Position numbers and translations under genes: made by a program. From positions 1,184,001-1,248,000 of the forward strand of contig CAXWPJ010000009.1 in NCBI GenBank assembly GCA_963664115.2: DNA of 64,000 nt, read 5' to 3'. This document shows positions 25,450-54,207 of this stretch, piece after piece. The number at the start of each line of letters is the position of its first letter. Within the stretch, counting starts at the first letter, position 1. Source of the DNA: Terriglobia bacterium. Lineage in GTDB: Bacteria; Acidobacteriota; Terriglobia; 20CM-2-55-15. The notes under the pieces are model-generated. The model did not search any database. It had not been told where the DNA came from and saw nothing but the letters and a program-made list of their open reading frames with translations.

Positions 25450-25739
25450 GCGTCTGAGTGTGCGTCGATTCGGCCAATTGGCAATCCTACTGGAGGCAGG
25501 ATGAATCCCGGATGGTGTGGTCTGTGATACAGCGTGCCACCCACTCTAACGTTGGGAATGCCGGAACGCCCGGCGAACATGACACGATCGTTTGCAACCA
25601 ACAATTCCTCCCAATACATGCGGCTGGTCACAATGCTGTCAGGGTTGCTGAACGGGACGGAAGGTGGTGTACTATTTTGTACATGATCGATGAGGCTGAC
25701 GATTGATACCTTGCCTGATAGAAAGAATCGAGGTTCTGA

Positions 25740-26450
25740 ATGGATTACGCTCAACTCTACAAGACCGCCTTCCAGAGTGAGCCCGACGGTCCGCCAGCCT
25801 GGATTCGATTCCCTTTCCCTTGGGGGTCTCCCGAAGCGTTGGAGCTCCAAGCGACCATCTGGAAAATAGAGAGCCGTATGTGGAAACAGTTTTTGACGAA
25901 CGTCCACGATACCTTGATTGAAGGGGATCTGTTGGAATTCGGCGTGTCTGTAGGAAATAGCCTCGAACAATTGATCCAGTACTCAGAAGAGATCGGACTG
26001 AAGATCAATATTTACGGATTCGATAGTTTTGAAGGGCTACCTGAGCCTTCCTCTCTTGACGCCCCTTATTGGCAAAAGGGTCAGTTCGCCGCCGATTACG
26101 AATCCGTCTTGGAGCGGTTGAAAGCGAAATCTCGCCCTAGTGTTTCCCTCGTCAAGGGCTGGTTTTCAGATACGCTGGCGCGTCCTGACATCCGGGCGAA
26201 CATAACCTCCGTCGCCTTTGCCCGGATTGACTGCGACCTTTATCAGCCAGCTGCTGAATGTTTGGAATTTCTTGAGGGTCGGCTTGTGGATGGCGCCTAC
26301 CTGTGCTTTGACGATTGGACAGATAACCCGAACACCGGCGAGACGCGAGCATTCTTTGAATTCTTCGATAGGACGAAGTGCAAGTTCAGATTCGATCTGC
26401 TCTGCCGAATTTCTCTCGGCGGCATGCATATGCGCGTGTTCCATATTTAA
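25740..26450 (+). CDS. TylF/MycF/NovP-like O-methyltransferase (copy 1)
   Basis: LEFGVSVGNS, GFDSFEGLP, VKGWFSDTL, IDCDLY, FDDW. Confidence 0.88.
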   Translation: MDYAQLYKTAFQSEPDGPPAWIRFPFPWGSPEALELQATIWKIESRMWKQFLTNVHDTLIEGDLLEFGVSVGNSLEQLIQYSEEIGLKINIYGFDSFEGLPEPSSLDAPYWQKGQFAADYESVLERLKAKSRPSVSLVKGWFSDTLARPDIRANITSVAFARIDCDLYQPAAECLEFLEGRLVDGAYLCFDDWTDNPNTGETRAFFEFFDRTKCKFRFDLLCRISLGGMHMRVFHI

Positions 26451-26828
26451 TCGTGAAGTCGGTCACCGCAGGATTTCTATGCGACAGTGCTAGAATTTGA
26501 GAAACTGCAGGTCGAAATCCATTCCATACCTCTTCCCAATCTTCCTGTACCTTCGTTCCAATGACGGAAGCGTAGTGGGTGGATAGTCAAAACAAAAGCA
26601 CTTTTGCAGTGAAGGCGAGATTAGGTTGTGGCGATTTCATCGCTCGATCAAGGTGAACACCGCCGCCGAGACTGCGTCACAGAGAATCAACGTCATCCTG
26701 AACTATTTTGAAGACCCGAAGGATTGAGTGCCGCTGCCGCAAAGCAGTTGATTCCTCCCTGCCTACCACTGAAATCCATGCTCAAGTCCAGTAAATATTG
26801 TCGGAAATTGACCGCTTGGACGTGTAGA

Positions 26829-40071: not shown

Positions 40072-40147
40072 GAATTGGGGTCAGAGCCCTATTTCCCTAT
40101 TTTCTTGTTACCTCAATTGTCGGGTAATTGGGCTCTCACCCCAATTC
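40072..40147. repeat. 22-bp inverted-repeat pair (REP/REPIN-like) between tig and clpP
   Basis: GAATTGGGGTCAGAGCCCTATT (40072-93) and AATTGGGCTCTCACCCCAATTC (40126-47), 20/22 complementary. Confidence 0.75.
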
Positions 40148-41713: not shown

Positions 41714-41750
41714 GAAATGAGTTTTCCGCTACAGGTTGTAAGGGGCCGAG

Positions 41751-41832
41751 TGCGAAAGGAGGGACTCGAACCCTCAAGGGTTACCCCACTGGATCCTAAA
41801 TCCAGCGCGTCTGCCAGTTCCGCCACTTTCGC
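41751..41832 (-). tRNA. tRNA-Leu(TAG), CCA not encoded
   Basis: GCGAAAGTGGCGGAACTGGCAGACGCGCTGGA-TTTAGGA-TCCAGTGGGGTAACCCTTGAGGGTTCGAGTCCCTCCTTTCGCA forms a cloverleaf with long variable arm. Confidence 0.96.
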
Positions 41833-41842
41833 GCACGTTTAA

Positions 41843-41876
41843 AATCAATTATTTGGAGAATCCTGCCACTTTCCAA
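41843..41876 (-). promoter_or_regulatory. IHF consensus site overlapping a candidate island-supplied promoter for the restored tRNA
   Basis: + strand AATCAATTATTTG fits WATCAANNNNTTR (41843-55); - strand TTGGAA-17-AATAAT (41876-41848). Confidence 0.45.
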
Positions 41877-42608
41877 TTAGGCGTCGATGGGGAGATTCGT
41901 GGGGACTCGACTCCTAATTTTGGCAGCTTCGCCACGAACTCTCGTTTGTAATCCATCGACAAGTGAGTATATCGCATCGTCATCTTCGGGTCCTTATGTC
42001 CCATGAGCTCCATTTGCGCTTTACTCGTCACTCCGCTCATCGCCAGCCATGATCCGTAGCAATGCCGGAGGTCATGGAAACGGAAGTCTTTCAGCCCGGC
42101 ACGTTCTACTGCGTTACAGAACGCCGTTCTCCAGTCCTTCCAGGGTTTCCCGTACCGATTGATGAATACCAAATCCTCTGGAGCCCGTTCACGCTCGGCC
42201 TTCAGTTGATTCAACGCCTCGAAGAGATCTTCCGTCATAGGGACTGTCCGCGTCTCACCGTTCTTGGCGTAGCAGCTCTCGACGGTGATCGACCGGTTCC
42301 GTATATTGACGTTGGACCAGCGCAAGGATGTGATTTCTGACTTCCTGAAGCCCGTATGCATCGCCATCAAAACGACGACGCGGAAATCAGGGTTGCAGTT
42401 AGCCAGCAGCGTCTGGACCTCTTCCTGGGTCAAATAGCGCGTCCTACCGTTATCTTCGCGGTACAGCTTCACTTCGCTGACCGGATTCTTCTTGGCGAAG
42501 CCCCACTTGGCGCACACGTTGAAGAGGTTTTTGAGCAGAGCCAACTCTCTGTTGACCGTGGCATCCGCAGCCTTCGCCTTCTTAGCGCTCCCGTTTGTAC
42601 TTCTCGAT
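41849..42608 (-). pseudogene. Tyrosine integrase, N-terminally truncated and frameshifted
   Basis: Catalytic motifs present (TGFRKSE, KNG, HDLRH, MGH, RY); upstream IEKYKRER is out of frame with KKAKAADATVNRELA and abuts the TylF module. Confidence 0.88.
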
Positions 42609-42705
42609 CAGGAGGATTGGAGAGAGACATGGCGTGGATTCCGACCTGCGATTTCTCAAACTCCAGCACTATCACAGCTATATCCTGCGGTGACCGGCTT
42701 CACGC

Positions 42706-43416
42706 TCAAATATGGAACACGCGCATATGCATGCCGCCGAGAGAAATTCGGCAGAGCAGATCGAATCTGAACTTGCACTTCGTCCTATCGAAGAATTCAA
42801 AGAATGCTCGCGTCTCGCCGGTGTTCGGGTTATCTGTCCAATCGTCAAAGCACAGGTAGGCGCCATCCACAAGCCGACCCTCAAGAAATTCCAAACATTC
42901 AGCAGCTGGCTGATAAAGGTCGCAGTCAATCCGGGCAAAGGCGACGGAGGTTATGTTCGCCCGGATGTCAGGACGCGCCAGCGTATCTGAAAACCAGCCC
43001 TTGACGAGGGAAACACTAGGGCGAGATTTCGCTTTCAACCGCTCCAAGACGGATTCGTAATCGGCGGCGAACTGACCCTTTTGCCAATAAGGGGCGTCAA
43101 GAGAGGAAGGCTCAGGTAGCCCTTCAAAACTATCGAATCCGTAAATATTGATCTTCAGTCCGATCTCTTCTGAGTACTGGATCAATTGTTCGAGGCTATT
43201 TCCTACAGACACGCCGAATTCCAACAGATCCCCTTCAATCAAGGTATCGTGGACGTTCGTCAAAAACTGTTTCCACATACGGCTCTCTATTTTCCAGATG
43301 GTCGCTTGGAGCTCCAACGCTTCGGGAGACCCCCAAGGGAAAGGGAATCGAATCCAGGCTGGCGGACCGTCGGGCTCACTCTGGAAGGCGGTCTTGTAGA
43401 GCTGGTCGTAATCCAT
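42706..43416 (-). CDS. TylF/MycF-like O-methyltransferase (copy 2)
   Basis: Protein identical to 25740-26450 except residue 4. Confidence 0.88.
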   Translation of the reverse strand: MDYDQLYKTAFQSEPDGPPAWIRFPFPWGSPEALELQATIWKIESRMWKQFLTNVHDTLIEGDLLEFGVSVGNSLEQLIQYSEEIGLKINIYGFDSFEGLPEPSSLDAPYWQKGQFAADYESVLERLKAKSRPSVSLVKGWFSDTLARPDIRANITSVAFARIDCDLYQPAAECLEFLEGRLVDGAYLCFDDWTDNPNTGETRAFFEFFDRTKCKFRFDLLCRISLGGMHMRVFHI

Positions 43417-43557
43417 TCAGAACCTCGATTCCTTCTGTCCCATCCAGCAAACCTGACGGCATCGTGGCAAGCCGCGTGCGCGCCACACTTCTCCCATCCC
43501 ACCCTTGCCGAGGAGACTCAGGATCTCGTAGTGGCCGAGTTTAGAGCCAGATTCCAT
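43417..43557 (-). pseudogene. Ser/Thr kinase N-terminal stub 1
   Basis: [28 protein letters not shown] then unrelated sequence; stop directly before the TylF ATG. Confidence 0.85.
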
Positions 43558-43634
43558 GTTCAAAGTGTGTCGCTGAAAAAACCGAGAAAAACTCGGTAAA
43601 CGATACTAGAGGTGGGTGTTAGGCGCTATCAAAT

Positions 43635-43728
43635 TCTCAACGCCTGATAAACATTGGCGGACACTGAGAAACCCCAGTAATTTGCCCAATTCTCAACGTC
43701 CGACAAGATGATTTCTCAGGACTTGACC
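43635..43728. repeat. Paired ~40-bp inverted sites, module 1
   Basis: TCTCAACGCCTGATAAACATTGGCGGACACTGAGAA (43635-70) and ATTCTCAACGTCCGACAAGATGATTTCTCAGGACTTGACC (43689-728). Confidence 0.8.
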
Positions 43729-43811
43729 CCGAGAGTCACGGCACCGGCACCCGTTCTTTCAGTTCTTCAATGTTGACTCACTGGAATCACACCGCGACTT
43801 TTGAGTCCAGC

Positions 43812-44456
43812 TCAGCGCGCTAACGAGCTCAGGTTCAGGGCCGTCATGGCGACGACGTAGATCGCGACAAAGTAGTACCAGCCACCCACCAGCTTCGGCA
43901 TCCGAAAGGGAGAAACGTTTAGGATGGCGAGTGTAACGACCGCAACGTAGAGTGCCCACGAGAACGCAGGGTGCCCCAATAGCTCACGGAACGGAAACAG
44001 AGCCGTCACAACGATGATATTGCTGTCGATCGGCAGGCCGCTGTACGCGCCGCCGTCGTGGCCAAGAATGTTGAAGTGAGCCAACCGAATCGCTCCCGCA
44101 ATCACCAGCAGAAAAGCGCCTGGTAGAAACCAGGGCTCGAAGTCGCCAATGCTGATCAGGAGCATTGCGGGAGCGACGCCGCTGGATACCATATCGGTAA
44201 GGGAGTCCAGTTGCGCGCCGAAGGCCCGGTCCTCGTCGGTCCGATCGGTCATTCGCCGAGCCAGCGGACCATCGAACCAATCGCAGAACAGCGCCCACAG
44301 CAGAGCTGTGCTGGCGGCGGTATAGGCGCCGCGCACACTGAACCAAATAGCCAGAATTCCGCATACCAACCCCGCCAAGGTCAGCAGGTTGGCTCGGTCG
44401 TAGACAAAAGACAGGGCGCTTCGTCGGCCGGATGGACTCGTCATTGGGGCAGGCAT
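43812..44456 (-). CDS. CDP-alcohol phosphatidyltransferase (PssA-like)
   Basis: DWFDGPLAR...GAQLDSLTD motif, RLAHFN, SGLP. Confidence 0.9.
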   Translation of the reverse strand: MPAPMTSPSGRRSALSFVYDRANLLTLAGLVCGILAIWFSVRGAYTAASTALLWALFCDWFDGPLARRMTDRTDEDRAFGAQLDSLTDMVSSGVAPAMLLISIGDFEPWFLPGAFLLVIAGAIRLAHFNILGHDGGAYSGLPIDSNIIVVTALFPFRELLGHPAFSWALYVAVVTLAILNVSPFRMPKLVGGWYYFVAIYVVAMTALNLSSLAR

Positions 44457-45607
44457 TTCCGCATCGCTTCGACGAGCATATGGTTCTCCGCTGCCGTCCT
44501 GCTGGCGATGCGCAGATACCGATCGGCATCCGACATGTGTTTACCAGCGCAGTGCTTGACGAAGATGTTGTGCTCCACGAAGAGCCGTTTGGCGATGACC
44601 GGACCGGATGGGCCTGGAGCTGGGAGACGACACATTACGAAGTTAGCCTGAGGTCGATATGCTGTCATTCCGGGTATCTCGTTCAGCCCTTCGTAGAGCT
44701 CATCGCAGTGTTCGCGAACCAGAGCGCAACTCTGCCTGAACGCCTTGCGCCAGCGCGGTGCCTCGCGCAGGAAGGCTTCCGCGAAACCGTTGATGTTCCA
44801 GATGGGCAACTCGGCGCGCACCGCGTTCGCGAATTCCTCATTGGCCGTCAGGAGATAGCCCAGCCGCAGTCCGCCGATCCCGAAGGACTTGCTCAAGCTC
44901 TTGAGGACCGCGAGGTTGGGAACGCGGTCAACCCAACCCTCCACGCTCAACTCCTGATAGTCGTTTGCAAAGTCGATGAAGGATTCATCGACAACGAGCA
45001 TGCACTCGGCCGATTCGAGTTGCGCGGCAAGGCGCAAGATGTCTGCTCTGGGCACTGCCAACGAGGTGGGATTGTTAGGTGTCACTACGATGGCCAGTTT
45101 TGCCTCGCTCTCGAGAACCCGTTGGGCAAAGGCATCTACGTCGAGTTTGAAAGTGGGAGAGGGCAGTTCGAACGGGACGAAGGCGCCAGCTCTCGCAGCG
45201 TCCTCGTACTCGTTGAACGAGGGCACAGGACAGGCGATCGGGCCGGGAAGGCGACCAGCGATGATCTTAATCAGTTCCGAAGCCCCGTTTCCAACCAGAA
45301 TGCGAGAGGAAGGCTGACCGATCAAAGTACCCACGAGCCGCGTGACAACTTCCTGTCCCGGAGGGTAGTTGAACACCAGCTCTCGCAAGTTGTTCTCAAA
45401 ATGTACGAACATCGTTTTAGGCGGGTAATAGGGATTGTACAGGTAGGCGTGATCGATAAACCCAAAGCGCCAATATCCCCCGTGCTGGCTCTGGACGTGG
45501 TCGTAACGCTCCTCGCCTGAGTTGGATAGATACTCAGCCGCCAATCGGTCACTTTCATCGTCGATCTCGCGCTTACCGGGCGTGAGATTCCATCGGTCGG
45601 CTTTCAC
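44441..45607 (-). CDS. Class I/II PLP enzyme (HisC/CobD-like)
   Basis: VGNGASE, PNNPT, VDESF, KSLSKSFGIGGLRLGY. Confidence 0.88.
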   Translation of the reverse strand: MKADRWNLTPGKREIDDESDRLAAEYLSNSGEERYDHVQSQHGGYWRFGFIDHAYLYNPYYPPKTMFVHFENNLRELVFNYPPGQEVVTRLVGTLIGQPSSRILVGNGASELIKIIAGRLPGPIACPVPSFNEYEDAARAGAFVPFELPSPTFKLDVDAFAQRVLESEAKLAIVVTPNNPTSLAVPRADILRLAAQLESAECMLVVDESFIDFANDYQELSVEGWVDRVPNLAVLKSLSKSFGIGGLRLGYLLTANEEFANAVRAELPIWNINGFAEAFLREAPRWRKAFRQSCALVREHCDELYEGLNEIPGMTAYRPQANFVMCRLPAPGPSGPVIAKRLFVEHNIFVKHCAGKHMSDADRYLRIASRTAAENHMLVEAMRKCLPQ

Positions 45608-45634
45608 GTAGATCTCCCTGAATCTGCCAGAGCG

Positions 45635-46471
45635 TTAACTTGCATTCTCTAGCATAAAAAAATGGTTCTGGAGCTTTGGCCAGCGCACACGAAGCCGCGC
45701 CGCCGCTCGGGGAAGAAGCCCGAAGCATACGGGCGACGTAGCCCGTAGCGACCACCAGGTCAAAGCGCCAAGAAAAGGTGAGGTGTGCGGCAGCATACGC
45801 AGGTAGCGGCGTCGCAGTTCGACGAGTTCGACTGCGATCTCCATATAGGTATAAGCGTAGTTTCGACGTGTGTCGACGCGCGACAAGCCAGCCTCTCGAA
45901 AGAGCGTTCGGTAAACGTCGACGCTACGATAGATCGCATGGTACTCGCCCTCTCTGTGCTCGTAACCGTTCGCAACGGTAGTCTCCCGTAAAACGACTCG
46001 CCCCCGATCACCGAGGCGTTCGATAACTGCTTGAACGAGCGCGATCGTGTCAGCGTCGCTCAGGTACATGCAGATTCCTCCTAAAAAGACGAGATCAAAT
46101 GGCCCCGGCGGCAATGGCTCTCGAACGTCCTGGTTCAGAAGCTCCACGTTCGACCGGTCCGTGAGCTTCTTTTTTGCAGCGACCAGCATCGCAGGGCTCT
46201 GTTCAATCCCAATGACGCTGCCGAAGCGCTGAGCGAAGAACTCGGTCCAGGTCCCCGACCCACAGCCCAAGTCAAGTACACGTGCTTGCGGCCCCCCGAC
46301 ATCGAGCCAGTCGCGTATCGCTCGGCGTTCCTTCTGGAAGCGATAACGAACAGCGTTTTCGGGCAAGTCTTGTGCGTGGGCCATGTAGCTCGCACAAGCC
46401 GCCGTGTCGGGGCCAGCTTGAGCAAAGTAGCGCCTAACCTCCCGGTAGTCGATCTGGTATTTGCCACTCAT
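45635..46471 (-). CDS. Class I SAM methyltransferase, phosphoethanolamine N-methyltransferase-like
   Basis: VLDLGCGSG; FDLVF..MYLSD..RE..YR..Y..LF.E pattern. Confidence 0.8.
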   Translation of the reverse strand: MSGKYQIDYREVRRYFAQAGPDTAACASYMAHAQDLPENAVRYRFQKERRAIRDWLDVGGPQARVLDLGCGSGTWTEFFAQRFGSVIGIEQSPAMLVAAKKKLTDRSNVELLNQDVREPLPPGPFDLVFLGGICMYLSDADTIALVQAVIERLGDRGRVVLRETTVANGYEHREGEYHAIYRSVDVYRTLFREAGLSRVDTRRNYAYTYMEIAVELVELRRRYLRMLPHTSPFLGALTWWSLRATSPVCFGLLPRAAARLRVRWPKLQNHFFMLENAS

Positions 46472-46609
46472 GTTCTGTCGCGCACCTTTTACGCGATAGG
46501 CACCACAAACTACGTTTCAGCAGTCCGGTCGGTGTCGCTGGGCCTCGCTCTCGGCCCCCGCTGGTCAACTCATGCGGACTTAAACCGCCGCATTCGTTGT
46601 CAAAGTAGA

Positions 46610-46697
46610 TTTTCGCGGGCTTTCCACACCTCGTCCATGACTCCTTACTTATTGCGGAGAGGATCTCGTAGCAGCCGAGTCGGGTGCCAGGGGGCAT
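46610..46697 (-). pseudogene. Ser/Thr kinase N-terminal stub 2 (degenerate, frameshifted)
   Basis: MPPGTRLGCYEILSAISK then MDEVWKARE in a shifted frame. Confidence 0.7.
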
Positions 46698-46772
46698 GAT
46701 TCAGCGTGGACTGTTCTGAGCGGCGCAAACTCACTAAATGATATGTAAATAAGGGGTTAGAAGCAAATAGAG

Positions 46773-46958
46773 TCTCAAGTCCTGAGAAACGACCTTGTCG
46801 GACACTGAGAATAGGCGAGCTTCGAGTGTCGCAGTAATTCATTGAAACAATGAGAGATATAGCTCGTTAGCGACCAATCGAGGAAGGGCAGGCGAGAGGA
46901 GGATTTCCGTTCGGTGAAATTCTCAATGTCCGCGAAGATGATTTATCGGGACCTGAGA
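46773..46958. repeat. Paired 40-bp inverted sites, module 2 (186-bp MITE-like unit)
   Basis: 46773-46812 and 46919-46958 are 31/40 complementary. Confidence 0.85.
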
Positions 46959-47039
46959 ATCGTTTTTAAGGCAGGGCTCAAGAAAATTCGATGGCCGCCG
47001 GCTGGTGCAGCACTTGTTATGCCGTTTCTTCGCTGAAAC

Positions 47040-47211
47040 AGAGAATGTATCCGTCGGGAACGGAGGCGAATCGGAGTGGTCGCCCGATGGCAGGACGCTC
47101 TACTTCCGAAACGGAAATCAGCTGCTGGCCGCCGACGTTCTTGATGCCGATAGTATGACTCTCGGTGTGCCGCGGCGGCTCCAGCTTTGCGACGGCTTAT
47201 ATCTCTCGTAA
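47040..47211 (+). pseudogene. Fragment of a TolB/PD40-like beta-propeller C-terminus
   Basis: VSVGNGGESEWSPDGRTLYFRNGNQLLAADV...GVPRRL. Confidence 0.6.
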
Positions 47212-47328
47212 TTCACCATCCTGACGCCTGCTTCGCCCCCTGATAGCGGCCGTTCGAAGACAATGCCTCAGGTCTGAGATGAACTCAGGGTTTAACTTTG
47301 GGACTCGGCGGATTTCGGGCCCCTCGCG

Positions 47329-47739
47329 CTAGTCTTTGCTCGTGCCGCGAATGTTGGAACCCGTTCCTCGCGAGTAATACACGCCGTTCACTTCCATACC
47401 CATGAACTCCCCGGTGCGTCGGGACTTGTTCCGTGGAGGATGAGCGATGATCTTGACCCGATTCCCGACCTTGAGAATCTGCGGCGAGATTCCGGATGCC
47501 ACCATGGACGCGGCCCCGGAGCCCTCAAAACCCCAGCTCTCCGTCCCGCCCTCGGCAATCGGCACATCGAGGGTGACCCACATGTGCGGATTCCTCCACT
47601 CGACGTTGGTGACCACGCCTTCGACGGAAATTAACACGTCCACGTCGAACATCGCACGCGAATGATGGGCCGACAGCGGCGCCGCCATTGACACGAATCC
47701 GAGAAGCATCGCTAGGATGCCGAGTGCCTTCCAAAACAT
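47329..47739 (-). CDS. Exported DUF6152-like protein
   Basis: Signal peptide, AHHS, W.NPH, LKVG.RV pattern; AGGAGG RBS. Confidence 0.75.
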   Translation of the reverse strand: MFWKALGILAMLLGFVSMAAPLSAHHSRAMFDVDVLISVEGVVTNVEWRNPHMWVTLDVPIAEGGTESWGFEGSGAASMVASGISPQILKVGNRVKIIAHPPRNKSRRTGEFMGMEVNGVYYSRGTGSNIRGTSKD

Positions 47740-47792
47740 ACCTGCCTCCTTCAAAATCGCGACAGCGATTCGCCACCCAAGTGCTGAATTCG

Positions 47793-48651
47793 TTAACCGA
47801 GGCGCGAAAGATAGGTCTCCGGTCCATCCTCCGGCCGGCACAAGACCTCTTCGATTTGATCGACCGTCTGACGCTTGAAGGTGACCGTCGGCGTCTCCCA
47901 GGGTATCGTCAGCGAGTTCTCATCTTCTGCCCTCGCCTGATACTCGAGCGTGTCGGCATCGATGCGACGCCACCGCTCGACGACGTGCATCGCGTCAGAG
48001 GTCAACCACACGCCCGTGCTGGCGTTCGTCGGCCTATCCTCGGGGCTCGCCAGCCATCCTTCACCGTTGAATGAAACCACGTCGACCACGAGCGTGTCCC
48101 CTTCCCACACTGCCGTTGAGTCGCCCATGTAAGTGGGATACAAATACTGCTCCGCGGTGTGCGGCCTTCCGGTCGTTGGAATGATCCGGTAGACCGGGTA
48201 CGCCTCGGTGAGCACGAATGCGAATCCGGGGCTCTGAATAATCTGGATTGGGTGCCCCAGCATCGCGGCGCGCGGAAAAGCGGGAGGAGCGCAGCAGGGT
48301 TGGGCAGCGAGAGTTCCTCCATCCAGGGTTCCGGTCGTTGGAATGATCCGGTAGACCGGGCGGGTCATCCTCCGCCGAGAGTTCCTCCATCCGAGCGCGC
48401 GCGGCGGGCGTGTACAGTCCCTCGAGCGTCGCCAGATCAAACGTATCGCGTCCGGAACTAGCGCCAAGGGGCGGCGCCCTCCAGACACCAGCTAGATCTG
48501 GCTCTCCCCACTCGGTCCGCGCCGAAAACGAACCGGTACCTGTCGAGGCGCTGTCGTTCGCGCCGTTCTCGTCCATCACTAGTCGCAGGCCGAGCAGCAC
48601 GGCAGCTCCAACGACCAAGCCAATGCCAATAGTCATCGCACGTCCGCTCAT
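47793..48651 (-). pseudogene. Exported hypothetical protein, frameshifted, with an internal duplication
   Basis: RTEWGEPDLAGVW and GDSTAVWEGDTLVVD blocks in different frames; 48168-48199 repeated at 48329-48360. Confidence 0.65.
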
Positions 48652-49925
48652 TGGACACCCCCGTCGAGGGTTCAACGGCGGGCGCACCCGACGCCTCCCT
48701 CTCTGCTTGCTGGACGGCGAACTCCCGGTGTCGCGCGTCCAACTCGGGATCCGGGAAGCAGAGTGACTCAAAGAGCGTGTCGTACGGCATGAGGCCCCGG
48801 CGAACGACCGATCCGGTCCATGGAGCCGTGAGCATTTTCGAGTCTTCAACGACCACGCTGTATTCAATGATCTGCGCGTCCGGCCGACTCCAGCGCTCGA
48901 CGATGCGCAATGCGTCCGAGGAGGTTTGCGGCAGCTGATCCGGCGGCCGAGCTGGCCAAGCCAGGGCTTGCCGTTGAAGTTCAGGGTCACCTCCACGACC
49001 AGCGTGTCGCCCTCCCAATGACCGACCGACGAGCCTTGAAAGGAAGGCTTGTGCGACGCACTCGGTTGGGGTTCGTTCTCGCCAACGATTGGGATGATCC
49101 GGAAGTAGTCACCGCCCTCGTTGAGCATCAGGAGGTATCCCGGGGCTGACACCAGTTGGATGGTTCCGGCGCCGAGCCCGAGCGCGGCCAGCAGTGATAG
49201 TTGGGGGTATCGATGCCTTGCCAATCGATCAGGCCGACCGCGGCACCTCCGCCCTCTCTGTATTCGCGCACCTCCGGACGGTACAGCGACTCCAGCGGAA
49301 CCGGGGGCCGCAGCCAATAGACGCCCTGGGCCAAGCCAAAATCCACGACCAGCGTGTCGCCCTCCCAATGACCGACCGACGAGCCTTGAAAGGAAGGCTT
49401 GTGCGACGCACTCGGTTGGGGTTCGTTCTCGCCAACGATTGGGTGATCCGGAAGTGGCCCTCGTTGAGCATCAGGAGGTATCCCGGGGCTGACACCAGTT
49501 GGATGGTTCCGGCCGCCGATCAGTGAGTTGGGGGTATCGATGCCTTGCCAATCGATCAGGCCGACCGCGGCACCTCCGCCCTCTCTGTATTCGCGCACCT
49601 CCGGACGGTACAGCGACTCCAGCGGAACCGGGGGCCGCGTGACTGTCGCGTCGGGCCAATAGACGCCCGAAAAATCCGGTTTCCCGTCCCACGACGTGCG
49701 TGGCACTGGATATTGCACAGGATCAGATTCGTACGCAACGAGACGCCCTCTCGCCTCGGAGCGAGTCTCCACGCCTTCAGGGAGGAGTTCTACAATCCGC
49801 TCTGTCCAGTCCGCGCCCGCCCCCGCCGCCTGTGGCGGGGTATAGGGCTCTATCTGAGCCGATGCGCGAAAAGCACCGAGGGCCACAAGCAGCGCCATTA
49901 CGGCGATTCCGGAACGAGTCAGCAT
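48650..49925 (-). pseudogene. Paralogous exported hypothetical protein with ~340-bp tandem duplication and indels
   Basis: PRTSWDGKPDFSGVY; GSSVGHWEGDTLVV occurs twice; 48992-49326 resembles 49342-49667. Confidence 0.65.
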
Positions 49926-50122
49926 CTCCGTCCCCCTAACTTTCTGATGCTCAAAGCATGCATTTCTGTGTGAAAAGAGAAGGTGGAAAATTCTTCAGGC
50001 AGCGTCTTGATCGCAACTTCACGCCCAAGTTTCGTGTCCTTGGCACGCCATACCTCACCCATACCACCCTTACCTAAGAGCGTTGAGATCTCGTAGTGGC
50101 CGAGTTTGGTACCGGATTCCAT
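49919..50122 (-). pseudogene. Ser/Thr kinase N-terminal stub 3
   Basis: [45 protein letters not shown] then unrelated; stop overlaps the next ATG. Confidence 0.9.
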
Positions 50123-50365
50123 AAAATAGTGTGTGCCGAATCGAAAAGCGAAAATGTTGAATAAATCTAACTACAGGTGGGGGTTATAAGCAAGGAAGTT
50201 GTGAGCCCGTGGGCCTCGCCTAATTCTCAACGTCCGAGAAGATGATTTATTGATGGTATGGACTCCTCTTTGATGACTGAGTCGGCATCGAAGTGCCAAA
50301 GTCATTTTGAGCCTCGCAATAAAGCGGGCGAAACACGTGTACGTGTGAACAAAAAGGAGTCCGAG

Positions 50366-51400
50366 ATGAAGAATAGAACGATAGCAGTGGATCTGGCAAA
50401 GAATGTTTTTCAAATTGGTGTTTCAGATCGCCCCGGGCATGTAGAGAAAACCTATCGTTTAAGTCGGGCAAAGTTTCTGGGGTTCTTTGCGAACCAGGAG
50501 CTGGCGACCGTGGTGATGGAAGCCTGCGGATCCGCCCATTACTGGGGTCGGAAGATCCGGGAACTGGGACACACGGTCGTTCTGATCTCGCCGCAGTATG
50601 TGACGCCCTACGTCAGGCGCAACAAGACCGACCGTACGGATGTGAAAGGATTGTTGGAAGCCTATCGTGACAGCGATATTCATCCAGTGCCGGTCAAAAC
50701 CCTGGCCCAACAGCAACTGACCTCATTGCATCGAATCCGTTCGGCGTGGATGCGAACCCGAACCGCACGGATCAATACGGTGCGGGGGTTGTTACGGGAG
50801 TTTGGCTACGTGATCCCGACCGGAGCGGATCATCTGGTGCCGGGGGTAATGGAGCTGATCGAAGATGCAGATGTCGTCATCCCCAGTGTCGTTCGGGAGA
50901 TGTTTCACCAGGTGTGTGGCGAGATCCGTGAATTGGAATCTCGCATGCGATCGGTGGAACAAGAGTTGAAGACGCTGGCTCGGCAGATGCCTGAGGTCGC
51001 GCGTCTGACGTCGATTCCCGGCATCGGCCTGTTAACGGCAACGGCAATGGTGGGGTTTGTTGGAAACATCAAACGATTCCGAACGTCCCGCCATTTTGCC
51101 AGTTATCTGGGACTCACACCCCGGGAACATTCCAGTGGCAACCAGCGACGCATGGGCCGGATCAGTAAGCAAGGCGATCGTTACCTCCGGATGCTGTTGG
51201 TTCATGGGGGCCGTTCCCTGTTGTGGAGTGCCCATCGAGAGGGCGCCACACCGACACCTCTCCAGCAATGGGGTCTCCAGAAACACGAGTTCCGCGGACA
51301 CAACAAGGCAATCGTTGCACTGGCCAACAAGTTGGCGCGTCGCGTGTGGGCGGTTTGGAACCGTGACTGTGACCATCAGGCCCGGTATCAGGCGGCCTGA
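50366..51400 (+). CDS. IS110 DEDD recombinase/transposase
   Basis: AVDLAKNVFQ, MEACGSAHYW, KTDRTD, GLTPREHSSG, ISKQGDRYLR; AAGGAG RBS. Confidence 0.94.
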   Translation: MKNRTIAVDLAKNVFQIGVSDRPGHVEKTYRLSRAKFLGFFANQELATVVMEACGSAHYWGRKIRELGHTVVLISPQYVTPYVRRNKTDRTDVKGLLEAYRDSDIHPVPVKTLAQQQLTSLHRIRSAWMRTRTARINTVRGLLREFGYVIPTGADHLVPGVMELIEDADVVIPSVVREMFHQVCGEIRELESRMRSVEQELKTLARQMPEVARLTSIPGIGLLTATAMVGFVGNIKRFRTSRHFASYLGLTPREHSSGNQRRMGRISKQGDRYLRMLLVHGGRSLLWSAHREGATPTPLQQWGLQKHEFRGHNKAIVALANKLARRVWAVWNRDCDHQARYQAA

Positions 51401-51439
51401 CCCGGAACAGTCGGAATATCTTTTCAGCGAGCTGCGATG

Positions 51440-51610
51440 AGGTTCGAGATGATGGCGTACCGGTCAGACCGGCGCGGGGCAACGCCGACAAGTCCTTTGG
51501 CCCTTAGAGGCCGTTATTTTATCGGTTGGCTCCCCGCGCGCAAATTTCCATCATGGCCTGGAACAATACAGTTCCACTTTTGAGGCCGAAGATACGGGTG
51601 CAGTCGACTA
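51440..51610 (+). ncRNA. Predicted bridge/seek RNA of the IS1111 element (boundaries approximate)
   Basis: Two stem-loops with internal loops carrying AAGTCC / TTTATCGG (target) and CCATCAT / AGATA (donor junction). Confidence 0.75.
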
Positions 51611-51731
51611 GCTACTCACCTCGTAACTTCTAGTCAGTCCTGCTGAATGCATTTTGCCGAAGAAAGCTGACGGGAGAGCTGCGCCTACTTGACAGAGGAG
51701 TCCAGATACGGGACTTGACCTCATTCTTTGG

Positions 51732-52199
51732 TCACTGATCTTGCCGTTCTTGTTTGAGCTTATCTTGATAGATCTGCTCGTACTGCTGAATGCGTTCTAA
51801 ATATCCGTCGGGATCGACGAAGCGCTCCGGATCGTAAGAGTCTCCAGGCTCGTATTTATCGTGAAGTCCGAAATGACCGGCATGTGATGAAACCCAGACA
51901 TCGAAAGTTCCTGCCAGCCTCTTTTGCCTGTCGAAGGTCTCAGCGTAAGCCTCACTGAAATTCGGGTAAGCCGGTGAATCGAGCAGCCGCACACGATACG
52001 CGATGCTGTAGGGATTCGCGAGGCCGCGCGCGACGACAACGACTCGGATATCCTGCCCTTCGGCGGTCTCGTAGGTCTTGGGCACGGGCGGCACCTTGAG
52101 CTCCGGTGCGACGGGGATGCCGTTCGCAAACGGCACGTTTTGCTGGGCGGCGGCCGGCGCCCAGACCAAGATCAACGATATAAGGAGTCCCCGTTTCAT
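51732..52199 (-). pseudogene. In-frame chimera: PQQ sugar-dehydrogenase-like N-terminus plus subclass B3 metallo-beta-lactamase-like C-terminus
   Basis: IRVVVVARGLANPYSIAY joined to YPNFSEAYAETF...DVWVSSH...FVDPDGY. Confidence 0.65.
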
Positions 52200-52352
52200 A
52201 TTTTCCACCGACCTCGAGTTTCCAGCGACGCACTGACCGCTTATTGCTATTGTGTATGAGCATAAAAAGCTCGGGGCGGGATGCGAAAGCTTGGCGTGAC
52301 GCCGGTTAGGTGAACTGCCCCACAGTTCAAATAGGCAGCCAGGGGGAAGGTC

Positions 52353-53807
52353 ATGTTGAACAAGAGTTACCTTTGCGGCGCCGCGTTGCTCCTCATCGCG
52401 ATCGGCACACAGATCGCTTGGGCAGATGACGCCGGATTATTGCGTACTACCTACGCGCTCGACGAAGCCCGTGGTTATTGCCTCGATATCCGGGGTTTCG
52501 GCGAAAACGCGAGAGTCGACGAACCGTTGCAGGTACATACGTGCAAATATGGCGCGGAGCTCGGGGATCAGATCTTTGCACGCACCGACGGGACGCGCGC
52601 GATATCGCTGCCCGAATACGATCGCTGCCTGGCCGCCACGGCGCTCGAGCCCGGCGCCACGCTACACGCGAGCGAGTGCACCGACAGCGCCAGGCAGCAG
52701 TGGCGCTTCGAGTGGGGGCGGCTGAGCCCCGAATCGCGACCGGATCTGTGCGTGTCGCTTGCCGGCGGCGCCGGAGCGGTCGCGGGAACGCCCGTATTGA
52801 TCACGCCCGTGTATCACAGCAGGTCGGTGAGCTTGGAGCGCTGCGATGACGCGCACAAGGCCCTCCAGACATTGCGCTTCTCGCCGCCCGATGAACGAGG
52901 CTTAAGCACGGCCGATGTCGCGCGTGAAGGCCTGCCGGCCGATGTCGCGGAGCGCCTCGCGGCTTTCGGGCGCGTGTTCGATGGACGGATCGCGGGCGAG
53001 ACGGCTCAGATCGTAGCGCCCGTACCAACCCTCTACGAAGCGGCTGAGATCGAAGTCGTGGAAGGGCTCGCCTATGGCTCGCACGAGCGCCAGCAACTCG
53101 ACATTCACACGGCGACGGCGCGCAACTCGAACGATCCCGTGCCCGTCATTGTCGTCTTTCACGGCGGCGGCTTGATCGGCGGCAGCAAAGAATCGACGGC
53201 GGCCGCTGCGAACTATTTCGCAAGCTTAGGACTAGTCGGCGTCAAGTCGAACTATCGTCTCGCCGGAACTCATCCTTGGCCTGCCGGCGCGCAAGACATC
53301 GGCGCGGCCGTGACTTGGCTCAGCGAGCATGCCGATGAATACGGCGGCGATCCCGAGCAGATATTCGTCATGGGCATCTCGACGGGCTCCTTCCATTCGG
53401 CGACTTACGTGTTCAGGCCCGAGCTCATGCCGCCCGGCACGATCCGCGCGGCCGGCGCGATCCTCATGTCGGGCCCGTATACGTTCGATTTCGACAATCC
53501 GTCGCCCGGTGAGCGCGCGTATTTTGGCGAGAATGCGTCGGCGTATGCCGAGCGCGTCGTCCCAGGCAATGTCAGCAGCACCGATATTCCGGTGTTGTTT
53601 ACGACGGCGGAGTGGGATGCGCCGCGCTACACGCGCTCATTGGCCATTCTGTTGCACGAGCTCGTCGTTGAGCATGGCGTTATGCCGCGCTATGCGCAGA
53701 GCCTAGGACACAATCATACGTCACAGTTGCTCTCGCTCGGCACGGCCGAAAAGAGCGTTTCGACGGAAATCGTCGACTTCATCGGGCAGGTGACAAAAGG
53801 GGACTGA
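52353..53807 (+). CDS. Exported ricin-B-lectin-like plus alpha/beta hydrolase (HSL-type esterase) fusion
   Basis: YCLDI, RCL, QQW, LCV lectin-like repeats; HGGG, YRLA, GISTG, HNH. Confidence 0.8.
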   Translation: MLNKSYLCGAALLLIAIGTQIAWADDAGLLRTTYALDEARGYCLDIRGFGENARVDEPLQVHTCKYGAELGDQIFARTDGTRAISLPEYDRCLAATALEPGATLHASECTDSARQQWRFEWGRLSPESRPDLCVSLAGGAGAVAGTPVLITPVYHSRSVSLERCDDAHKALQTLRFSPPDERGLSTADVAREGLPADVAERLAAFGRVFDGRIAGETAQIVAPVPTLYEAAEIEVVEGLAYGSHERQQLDIHTATARNSNDPVPVIVVFHGGGLIGGSKESTAAAANYFASLGLVGVKSNYRLAGTHPWPAGAQDIGAAVTWLSEHADEYGGDPEQIFVMGISTGSFHSATYVFRPELMPPGTIRAAGAILMSGPYTFDFDNPSPGERAYFGENASAYAERVVPGNVSSTDIPVLFTTAEWDAPRYTRSLAILLHELVVEHGVMPRYAQSLGHNHTSQLLSLGTAEKSVSTEIVDFIGQVTKGD

Positions 53808-54118: not shown

Positions 54119-54165
54119 AAGCGGGTTCCGGCGTGCCCTCAAGCACTTCCGAAACCCGCTTTTTT
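54119..54165. terminator. Probable bidirectional terminator beside the displaced tRNA half
   Basis: AAGCGGGTTCCGG...CCGAAACCCGCTT stem with T6 on + and TTCTTTGTT on -. Confidence 0.7.
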
Positions 54166-54167
54166 GC

Positions 54168-54207
54168 ATCCTAAATCCAGCGCGTCTGCCAGTTCCGCCA
54201 CTTTCGC
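54168..54207 (-). other. Displaced 5' half of tRNA-Leu (att site)
   Basis: Exact 40-nt match to tRNA positions 1-40; TATACT about 20 nt upstream (54227-32). Confidence 0.9.

Follow-up and report, generated by a model that had tools for sequence, protein, structure and literature searches.

What kind of element places the same short leader in front of unrelated sets of genes? The question is raised by the 64,000-nucleotide stretch analysed here, hereafter the window, which corresponds to positions 1,184,001 to 1,248,000 of contig CAXWPJ010000009.1 from a Terriglobia bacterium (assembly GCA_963664115.2). In this window, a leader made of a 40-bp site, a TAAA-N18-TTA motif and the beginning of a Ser/Thr kinase gene occurs three times, each time ahead of different cargo genes. 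An earlier, sequence-only reading took the site for a recombination-site or transposon-end family that travels with kinase genes, integron-like in layout and without attC structure. Here, we followed the site through the 4.9-Mb source genome (G000), through four congeners (G001, G002, G003 and G004) and through a wider comparison set of 61 genomes, which includes the genera g1, g4 and g10. It is probable that gene blocks all over the chromosome are joined at this 40-bp repeat and reshuffled between loci and between species, likely by a tyrosine recombinase. This view is built on direct observation of the anatomy of the site, its direct orientation, the exchange of its flanks, recurring units, species-specific spacers, targeting by insertion sequences (IS), and flanking kinase heads and tails.

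A family of two-armed sites whose flanks are exchanged

Intact sites were counted with a profile of the arms at one score cut-off, and a base-shuffled genome served as control. The profile found 172 sites in G000 and 0 in the shuffled genome, so the family is not due to chance. Ten of the 172 lie in duplicated context, and the non-redundant number is 162. A looser half-site search for interrupted or aberrant sites added 79 further places, a few of which are weak. The family thus far exceeds the window, a scale that had been overlooked, and it is tied to kinase genes, as had been proposed. The 40-bp consensus, ATTCTCAA-N-GTCCGASAA, spacer, TTVTCAGGACTTGA, can be described as two 18-bp arms that form one inverted repeat, in which the GTCC block is offset by one base. 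The spacer is fixed at 6 bp and reads GATGAT in 130 of the 172 sites, here called A type; in the 20 sites of the B type it is TGTCGT or GGTCGT. Eight sites have lost 3 bp of it.

There are 22 arrays with at least four sites, 11 of them less than 15 kb from a tRNA, and about 11% of the genome (558 kb between outer sites) falls in arrays. The A sites lie mostly just beyond kinase stop codons, and neighbouring A sites less than 12 kb apart are nearly always direct repeats (86 of 90 pairs, with a median spacing of 2.3 kb). The B sites have the inverted orientation and are turned towards the kinase promoter, and their distance to an A site is often 56-57 or 146 bp. Orientation follows the array and not the skew, which speaks against a replication-strand bias. 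Both orientations occur on one replichore of G002.

The sequences beside the sites fall into families, and left-flank families combine with different right-flank families, with the switch point inside the site. The site does not seem to be only a transcription-factor operator of kinase genes, the caution expressed in the sequence-only reading. Unit 2 of the window is present whole in G001 (window positions 43722-46816) and in G004 (43740-46781), at other loci and with other neighbours; in both genomes it ends at or inside sites, as unit boundaries in relatives do. Furthermore, the right flank of site 2 is found in G002 beside an A site with a different left neighbour, and that of site 3 is found in G003 between sites at another locus. 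When 18 site-rich G002 loci (360 kb), selected for holding sites, were compared with G000, 46 low-copy blocks, each with a length of 400 bp or more and an identity of 90% or more, mapped to scattered places. Eleven of the 87 block ends fall within a site, against 0.87 expected, and seven of these also fall within a G000 site.

With up to three mismatches, the A pattern has 128 matches in G000 and 10, 89, 40 (G003) and 0 (G004) in the four congeners. Four of the five g4 genomes have one to three matches, reversed controls have none, and the pattern is absent at this threshold from the other 51 genomes searched. In the sister species, G004, related arms enclose a different dominant spacer, CCGGAT, and a second family carries GGCGAC or GGGGGT. 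The pattern of this second family matched 4 of 4 g1, 4 of 5 g4 and 2 of 2 g10 genomes, numbers that are biased because the pattern was derived from loci of those genera, and it matched none of the other 51 genomes, G000 included. Species-specific spacers between related arms are what is expected if spacer identity governs exchange. The exact site was also found on eleven metagenome contigs, several with matching stubs, and all eight loci with the exact site pattern are in Terriglobia genomes; viral contigs, plasmids and Rfam gave no match, tRNA excepted.

Insertion elements use the site as a target. All seven copies of one IS110-type element lie in sites, and seven of the eight genome copies of the IS110-family element seen in the window occupy the same position of the site. 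An IS30-like element has 12 of 12 ends in sites, among the ends listed, and IS91-like elements are inserted in sites or close to them. A probable group II intron is located in the right arm of a site at C5:37622-39676 and at a G002 locus (L016). The IS30, IS91 and group II intron labels are presumptive, and the label of the window element alone comes from Pfam.

Kinase shells and the array in the window

The presumed founder kinase (Pkinase plus PD40) is a Ser/Thr kinase-PD40 protein of about 890 amino acids, whose family is present in 50 of the 61 genomes. In G000 there are six full-length copies, 61 head-containing fragments and 135 tail-containing fragments; the C-terminal tails had escaped the sequence-only reading. 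One full kinase is bounded exactly by two direct A sites (C10:248476-251145), and direct head-tail fusions exist (C2:744318). The lengths of heads and tails vary, the tails having 10-50 codons, which indicates that the inner joints are not site-specific. Among 86 units between two A sites, 43 have no adjacent stub, 26 have a tail, six a head, nine both, and two a full kinase. The unit that had been proposed, composed of site, kinase head and cargo, is to be corrected: the unit proper is the stretch between sites, often a hollowed-out kinase gene of which the head, the tail or both persist, and such kinases are the commonest cassette shell.

Cargo genes run along the kinase direction in 107 cases and opposite to it in 58. 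For 46 stubs followed by a non-IS gene, 34 of the genes share the direction of the stub, and the start of 15 falls between -30 and +60 bases from its stop. Upstream of 24 of 40 stubs there is a TT(G/A)NNN-N18-TAG(T/A)(A/C)T box, which, by its consensus, is predicted to be a sigma70-like promoter. The TAAA-N18-TTA motif, present in all three leaders of the window and in 20 of the 40 stubs, overlaps this box on the other strand; it is the opposite-strand reading of the predicted promoter. The stubs may act as a portable promoter module for the cargo, for which the co-orientation gives statistical support. In stub 1, the last 23 nucleotides, stop included, are common to a second copy of its TylF cargo; the coupling of stop and cargo thus arrived with the cargo.

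The cargo consists of mixed accessory metabolism, such as hydrolases, glyoxalases, methyl- and acetyltransferases, cupins and secreted propellers. Between two sites at C2:~257-258 kb (L127:2972-4402) there is a 477-aa S1-domain protein that resembles ribosomal protein S1. Tandem kinase arrays with head and tail stubs and no A sites were seen at loci of other genomes (L137; L138 in G026; L143 in G021; L144 in G013), where the tail stop overlaps the next start or a palindrome resembling repetitive extragenic palindromic (REP) sequences parts the kinases.

The three units of the window sit inside an island bounded by a tRNA-Leu gene and a 43-bp duplicate (Table 1). This duplicate, the tail stub beside site 1 and the fourth unit had been overlooked. 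The layout of three leaders was otherwise confirmed at all its positions: with the IS removed, site 3 is identical to site 1 at 37 of 40 positions, both inverted partner copies are present, Pfam agrees with the cargo labels, the stop of stub 1 directly precedes the ATG of TylF, and the overlap between stub 3 and the ATG of its cargo is 7 nt. Kinase homology was found in stubs 1 and 3, whereas stub 2 is decayed. At the tRNA-Leu locus, G002 has an intact integrase and no sites, and homology ends at 42613.

Misassembly of the junctions was examined on contigs of public runs from four studies. One of the four runs is possibly the source sample, and each contig covers only part of the stretch. Without any difference, contigs extend over 42708-43575 in one run, over 46546-46946 in one and over 46774-47367 in two, so that the junctions tested, which are the joint of stub 1 with TylF and the region of site 2, are not misassembled.

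Table 1 Features of the array and its island (positions in the window).
Feature	Position	Strand	Remark
tRNA-Leu, island integration site	41750..41832	-	
Island tyrosine integrase, 3' remnant, not the cassette enzyme	41849..42613	-	intact orthologue (83% aa) in G002, no sites nearby
Unit 1 cargo, TylF-family methyltransferase	42706..43416	-	second copy 97% identical, 25717-26547
Kinase head stub 1, 46 codons	43417..43557	-	kinase homology 43475-43557 (83 nt)
Predicted sigma70-like promoter TTGATA-N18-TAGTAT	43603..43632	-	opposite strand carries TAAA-N18-TTA; putative function
B-type site, inverted	43633..43671	-	spacer minus 3 bp
A-type site 1	43689..43728	+	spacer GATGAT
Kinase tail stub (NIEELKERVPVP, then stop)	43736..43774	-	3' end of unit 2, beside site 1
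Unit 2 cargo: methyltransferase, pyridoxal-phosphate (PLP) enzyme, CDP-alcohol phosphatidyltransferase	43812..46471	-	Pfam
Decayed kinase head stub 2, 87-codon frame	46434..46697	-	kinase-like at start only
B-type site, inverted	46773..46812	-	spacer GGTCGT; 106 bp from site 2
A-type site 2	46919..46958	+	
Unit 3 cargo: DUF6152 protein, with exported partner genes that are frameshifted	47329..49925	-	
Kinase head stub 3, 67 codons	49919..50122	-	kinase homology 49984-50122 (139 nt)
Predicted sigma70-like promoter TTGCTT-N18-TAGATT	50164..50193	-	putative function
A-type site 3, split by IS110-family element	50223..51720	+	50223-50250 + 51709-51720
IS110-family element in site 3	50251-51708		transposase frame 50258-51400; Pfam Transposase_20 + DEDD_Tnp_IS110
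Fourth unit: short open reading frame and carboxylesterase	51721..53807	.	between sites at another G003 locus
43-bp duplicate of tRNA-Leu 5' end, far end of island	54165-54207	-	

Several further details of the window were noted. The second TylF copy (25717-26740, 97% identical) edges a glycosylation-like cluster, with a decayed kinase tail and a site next to it. The PLP enzyme gene at 45570 is about 700 bp shorter than the 534-aa form of G001 and G004. The exported-protein genes of unit 3 (48167-49638) have exact internal duplications of 32-113 bp and frameshifts; public contigs differ at 49169-49179 by small insertions, so part of this damage may be assembly error. A 26-bp inverted repeat, REP-like, lies between clpP and tig (40072-40147).

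The putative mechanism, its enzyme and the competing explanations

A tyrosine recombinase, for which the best candidate is the host XerC, alone or together with XerD, would bind both arms as double-stranded DNA and exchange strands within the 6-bp spacer. A block between two direct sites of the same spacer would be excised as a circle and could re-enter any site with that spacer, and the inverted B sites, since their spacer differs, would form a second channel. The founder cassette would have been composed of a promoter and a Ser/Thr kinase-PD40 gene. By deletion and illegitimate joining at points that vary, unrelated genes would then have taken the place of the kinase interior, with a head (promoter and start), a tail of 10-50 codons, or both left next to the sites, and these stubs may supply further homology for ordinary recombination.

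G000 has 27 PF00589 hits. Orthology was covered for all 12 hits of G003, for 20 regions of the 27 hits of G002 and for 8 of the 35 of G001. Against the G003 hits, the only close full-length orthologues are XerC (C9:863291; 78%), XerD (C2:150455; 85%) and a phage-type integrase; the last is common to both genomes (67-70%) and is located where no sites lie. Among these 12 hits, XerC and XerD are thus the sole tyrosine recombinases with high conservation between G000 and G003, which makes XerC, alone or with XerD, the parsimonious candidate. The poor XerD arm and the one-base offset of the arms, similar to difH, make a single recombinase of another kind equally possible. If blocks are shuffled as we propose, the chances that host XerC(/D) is the predicted enzyme are a little short of even, the same holds for a recombinase that is absent from these assemblies or was missed in them, and another resident enzyme is improbable.

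Other candidates were rejected. The tyrosine integrase remnant, toward which all units had been seen to point in the sequence-only reading, is an ordinary broken integrase of the tRNA-Leu island, and its orthologue is intact at the G002 locus. A 316-aa tyrosine recombinase (C5:52189-53139) has no match at 1e-30 in G002, G003 or G004, occurs in 12 of the 61 genomes, mostly site-less ones, and is likely cargo. It lies between two inverted B sites (C5:52060-53270, L011), each followed outward by a promoter and a kinase head, and the whole may be able to invert. For recombinases that accompany IS91-like transposases there is no orthologue among the G003 hits, the three serine resolvase hits have no link to sites, and large serine recombinases were not found in G000-G003. 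The two HUH transposase hits lie away from arrays, one single site excepted. For a minimal recombinase acting on TGTCG-N17-CGACA, the motif is not enriched (9 occurrences, against 6-18 at other spacings) and no intact small recombinase is tied to sites. A gene similar to XerH or XerS and common to the site-rich genomes was not found.

Several results weigh against a recombinase acting at the site. None was found among the array proteins in a sample of 147 of 309 clusters, and a local hidden Markov model search gave no new recombinase tied to sites. The right arm matches the XerD arm at 3-6 of 11 positions across all 130 A sites. Circular junctions, which had been proposed as a check, were not seen: two mappings of the public-run contigs, which drop rare forms, revealed neither an excision circle nor a skip junction whose unique sides were long; the joints at sites had sides of just 20-30 bases, too short to be informative. 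The sites that bound unit 2 in G001 and G004 are damaged or partial, and kinase stubs are present also in relatives with few sites. The other 76 of the 87 block ends are outside sites and, among the ends listed, lie in kinase stubs, at IS insertions or at plain joints, and the site therefore accounts for only part of the shuffling. Lastly, the variable inner-arm positions 8, 14, 15 and 26 track neither flank, which a single spacer crossover does not predict.

These last two results would suit an operator or other protein-binding repeat that was spread with duplicated kinases, the shuffling being ordinary homologous or microhomology recombination between repeats and stubs. Several of the outside ends are indeed in stubs, gene conversion would give variants decoupled from both flanks, the B sites abut the promoter, and no enzyme was found. 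However, the A sites lie mostly just past kinase stops, and half of the A-A units have no adjacent stub. The asymmetric spacer is near-invariant within a species and differs between species while the arms stay related; moreover, neighbours are direct in 86 of 90 cases, and there are hybrid left-arm/left-arm sites and 3-bp spacer deletions. We consider the operator explanation unlikely.

Ordinary XerC/XerD dif modules, as in Acinetobacter, were weighed on the resemblance of the site to dif. A canonical dif is present separately in G000 as a single copy (C2:108118), and a matching pattern was found in 20 of the 61 genomes. The A consensus matches this dif at 8 of 11 positions in the left (XerC) arm, 1 of 6 in the spacer and 5 of 11 in the right arm, and 125 of the 130 A sites have a XerC-like left arm with 6-8 of 11 matches. 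The 11-6-11 core with this left arm, the inverted A/B pairs with different spacers and the IS hot spot all agree with dif modules, and XerCD can act at sites of integrative mobile elements exploiting Xer (IMEX) with a divergent XerD arm (PMC5357621). In pdif sites, however, the XerD arms are conserved (PMC13141974 Table 1), whereas the right arm here is not XerD-like, neighbours are direct and not alternately inverted, and the arms have conserved outer 7-bp extensions. Ordinary dif modules are therefore a very unlikely explanation.

Three hybrid sites combine the XerC arm of dif and a dif-like spacer with a second arm that is not of XerD type, and two of the three are inside arrays. One lies 3.4 kb from dif as a direct second site (C2:108118-111541) and is likely the remnant of an element integrated at dif; the other two are at C2:750682, beside an ssb fragment, and at C9:952936. 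A further 11-6-11 family has two XerC-like arms and spacers such as GCCGAC, and is nested mostly in arrays (C2:93821, C2:258699, C2:322773, C12:429565, C12:544097 and others). In distant relatives, sites like these stand on either side of genes for Cre-like recombinases.

An unusual attC, which an integron integrase of the genome would recombine in the form of a single-stranded hairpin, is very unlikely. A hairpin with two bulges can be drawn from the site, the arrays are direct with co-oriented cargo, and there is a gene that we take, from our reading of its insertion, to be IntI-like (C9:714590-715549). This gene, however, has no intact site within about 195 kb, and there is no IntI orthologue among the 12 hits of G003 despite 40 sites in that genome. 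Compensatory pairing was not found, the variable pair 15:26 being paired in 72 of 176 sites against 74.9 expected by independence. The 6-bp centre is fixed, whereas the attC loop is highly variable (PMC8352920), and the occurrence of both orientations on one G002 replichore also stands against attC.

Ends or remnants of a small non-autonomous transposon (a miniature inverted-repeat transposable element, MITE, or a REP-like one) inserting beside kinases would account for the high copy number, the quasi-palindrome and the IS-rich surroundings, but can hardly be right, as target duplication was not found (6.2% against 5.3% +/- 1.8% in shuffled flank pairs, n=130), the flanks belong to recurrent families that are exchanged, the units are bounded by direct and not inverted copies, and the HUH hits are not near arrays. 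The lack of covariation and of target duplication together fit a double-stranded recombination site better than attC or a MITE. The earlier proposal, a family of recombination sites that accompanies kinase genes and has an integron-like layout but no attC structure, is supported.

Comparison with known cassette systems

The pdif modules of Acinetobacter have in common with the present system the two site arms around a 6-bp spacer, a module size of one to few genes, the lack of an enzyme in the array, spacer classes and an IS insertion hot spot (PMC13141974, bioRxiv 10.1101/2022.12.17.520857). The rule that spacer identity governs exchange has been stated for pdif sites (PMC13141974), and chromosomal dif-module islands have been described (PMC12907356). 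In contrast to pdif modules, the sites here are mostly direct instead of alternately inverted, have a right arm unlike that of XerD, measure 40 bp with conserved outer arms, number about 240 on the chromosome and are accompanied by kinase head and tail shells.

Arrays of attC sites without an integrase are termed CALIN. Integron arrays, integrase-less ones included, resemble the arrays described here in having direct sites between unrelated genes, a bias of cargo to one direction, and cassettes common to different arrays and species (PMC8352920). They differ in that the present sites have no hairpin covariation, a fixed short spacer and no linkage to IntI, in that many units have their own promoter, and in the presence of units with several genes.

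In difH/XerH and difSL/XerS, the arms likewise form one inverted repeat with a one-base offset, and difH has a 6-bp centre; these are single chromosomal sites for dimer resolution (PMC5241119, PMC5357621), whereas here there are 172 copies and a separate canonical dif. IMEX, such as the TLC phage and the gonococcal island, share a XerC-like arm with a divergent second arm, and hybrids with the dif spacer exist in G000; however, IMEX keep the central region of dif and integrate at dif (PMC5357621), while the A spacer matches dif at 1 of 6 positions and the arrays are genome-wide. The expansion of Ser/Thr kinases in Acidobacteria also combines many kinase paralogues with short repeats, and that account, in the part used here, deals with paralogues and the number of repeats rather than with sites of recombination, stubs or cassettes (PMC3174227). 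A literature search, with subscription journals largely outside it, found no published description of a kinase-shell cassette system.

We put forward tentatively, as a possibility that is rather less likely than not in its entirety, that this is a third natural cassette system beside integrons and pdif modules. It would consist of about 240 Xer-type sites in some twenty chromosomal arrays, in three Terriglobia genera. The sites would be read by host XerC, which would do without a canonical XerD arm, or by another recombinase. Species-specific spacers would be its exchange channels, new cassettes would be born by the hollowing out of a kinase cassette, and captured genes would inherit the kinase promoter and sites. 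To our knowledge, the first making of cassettes is an open question for integrons and for dif modules; here, intermediates of cassette birth are visible in bulk, as kinase cassettes that are intact, heads fused to tails, and shells that hold foreign genes. The share of the genome in arrays suggests that they are one of the main routes by which this little-studied lineage gains genes, and they may also account for some of the expansion of kinases in Acidobacteria. A site that is short, double-stranded and open to spacer swaps lends itself to simple assays, and XerC acting without a canonical XerD arm, if true, would extend Xer biology. The layout of the system is integron-like and the design of its site is that of a dif module, but it departs from each of the two in a defining feature.

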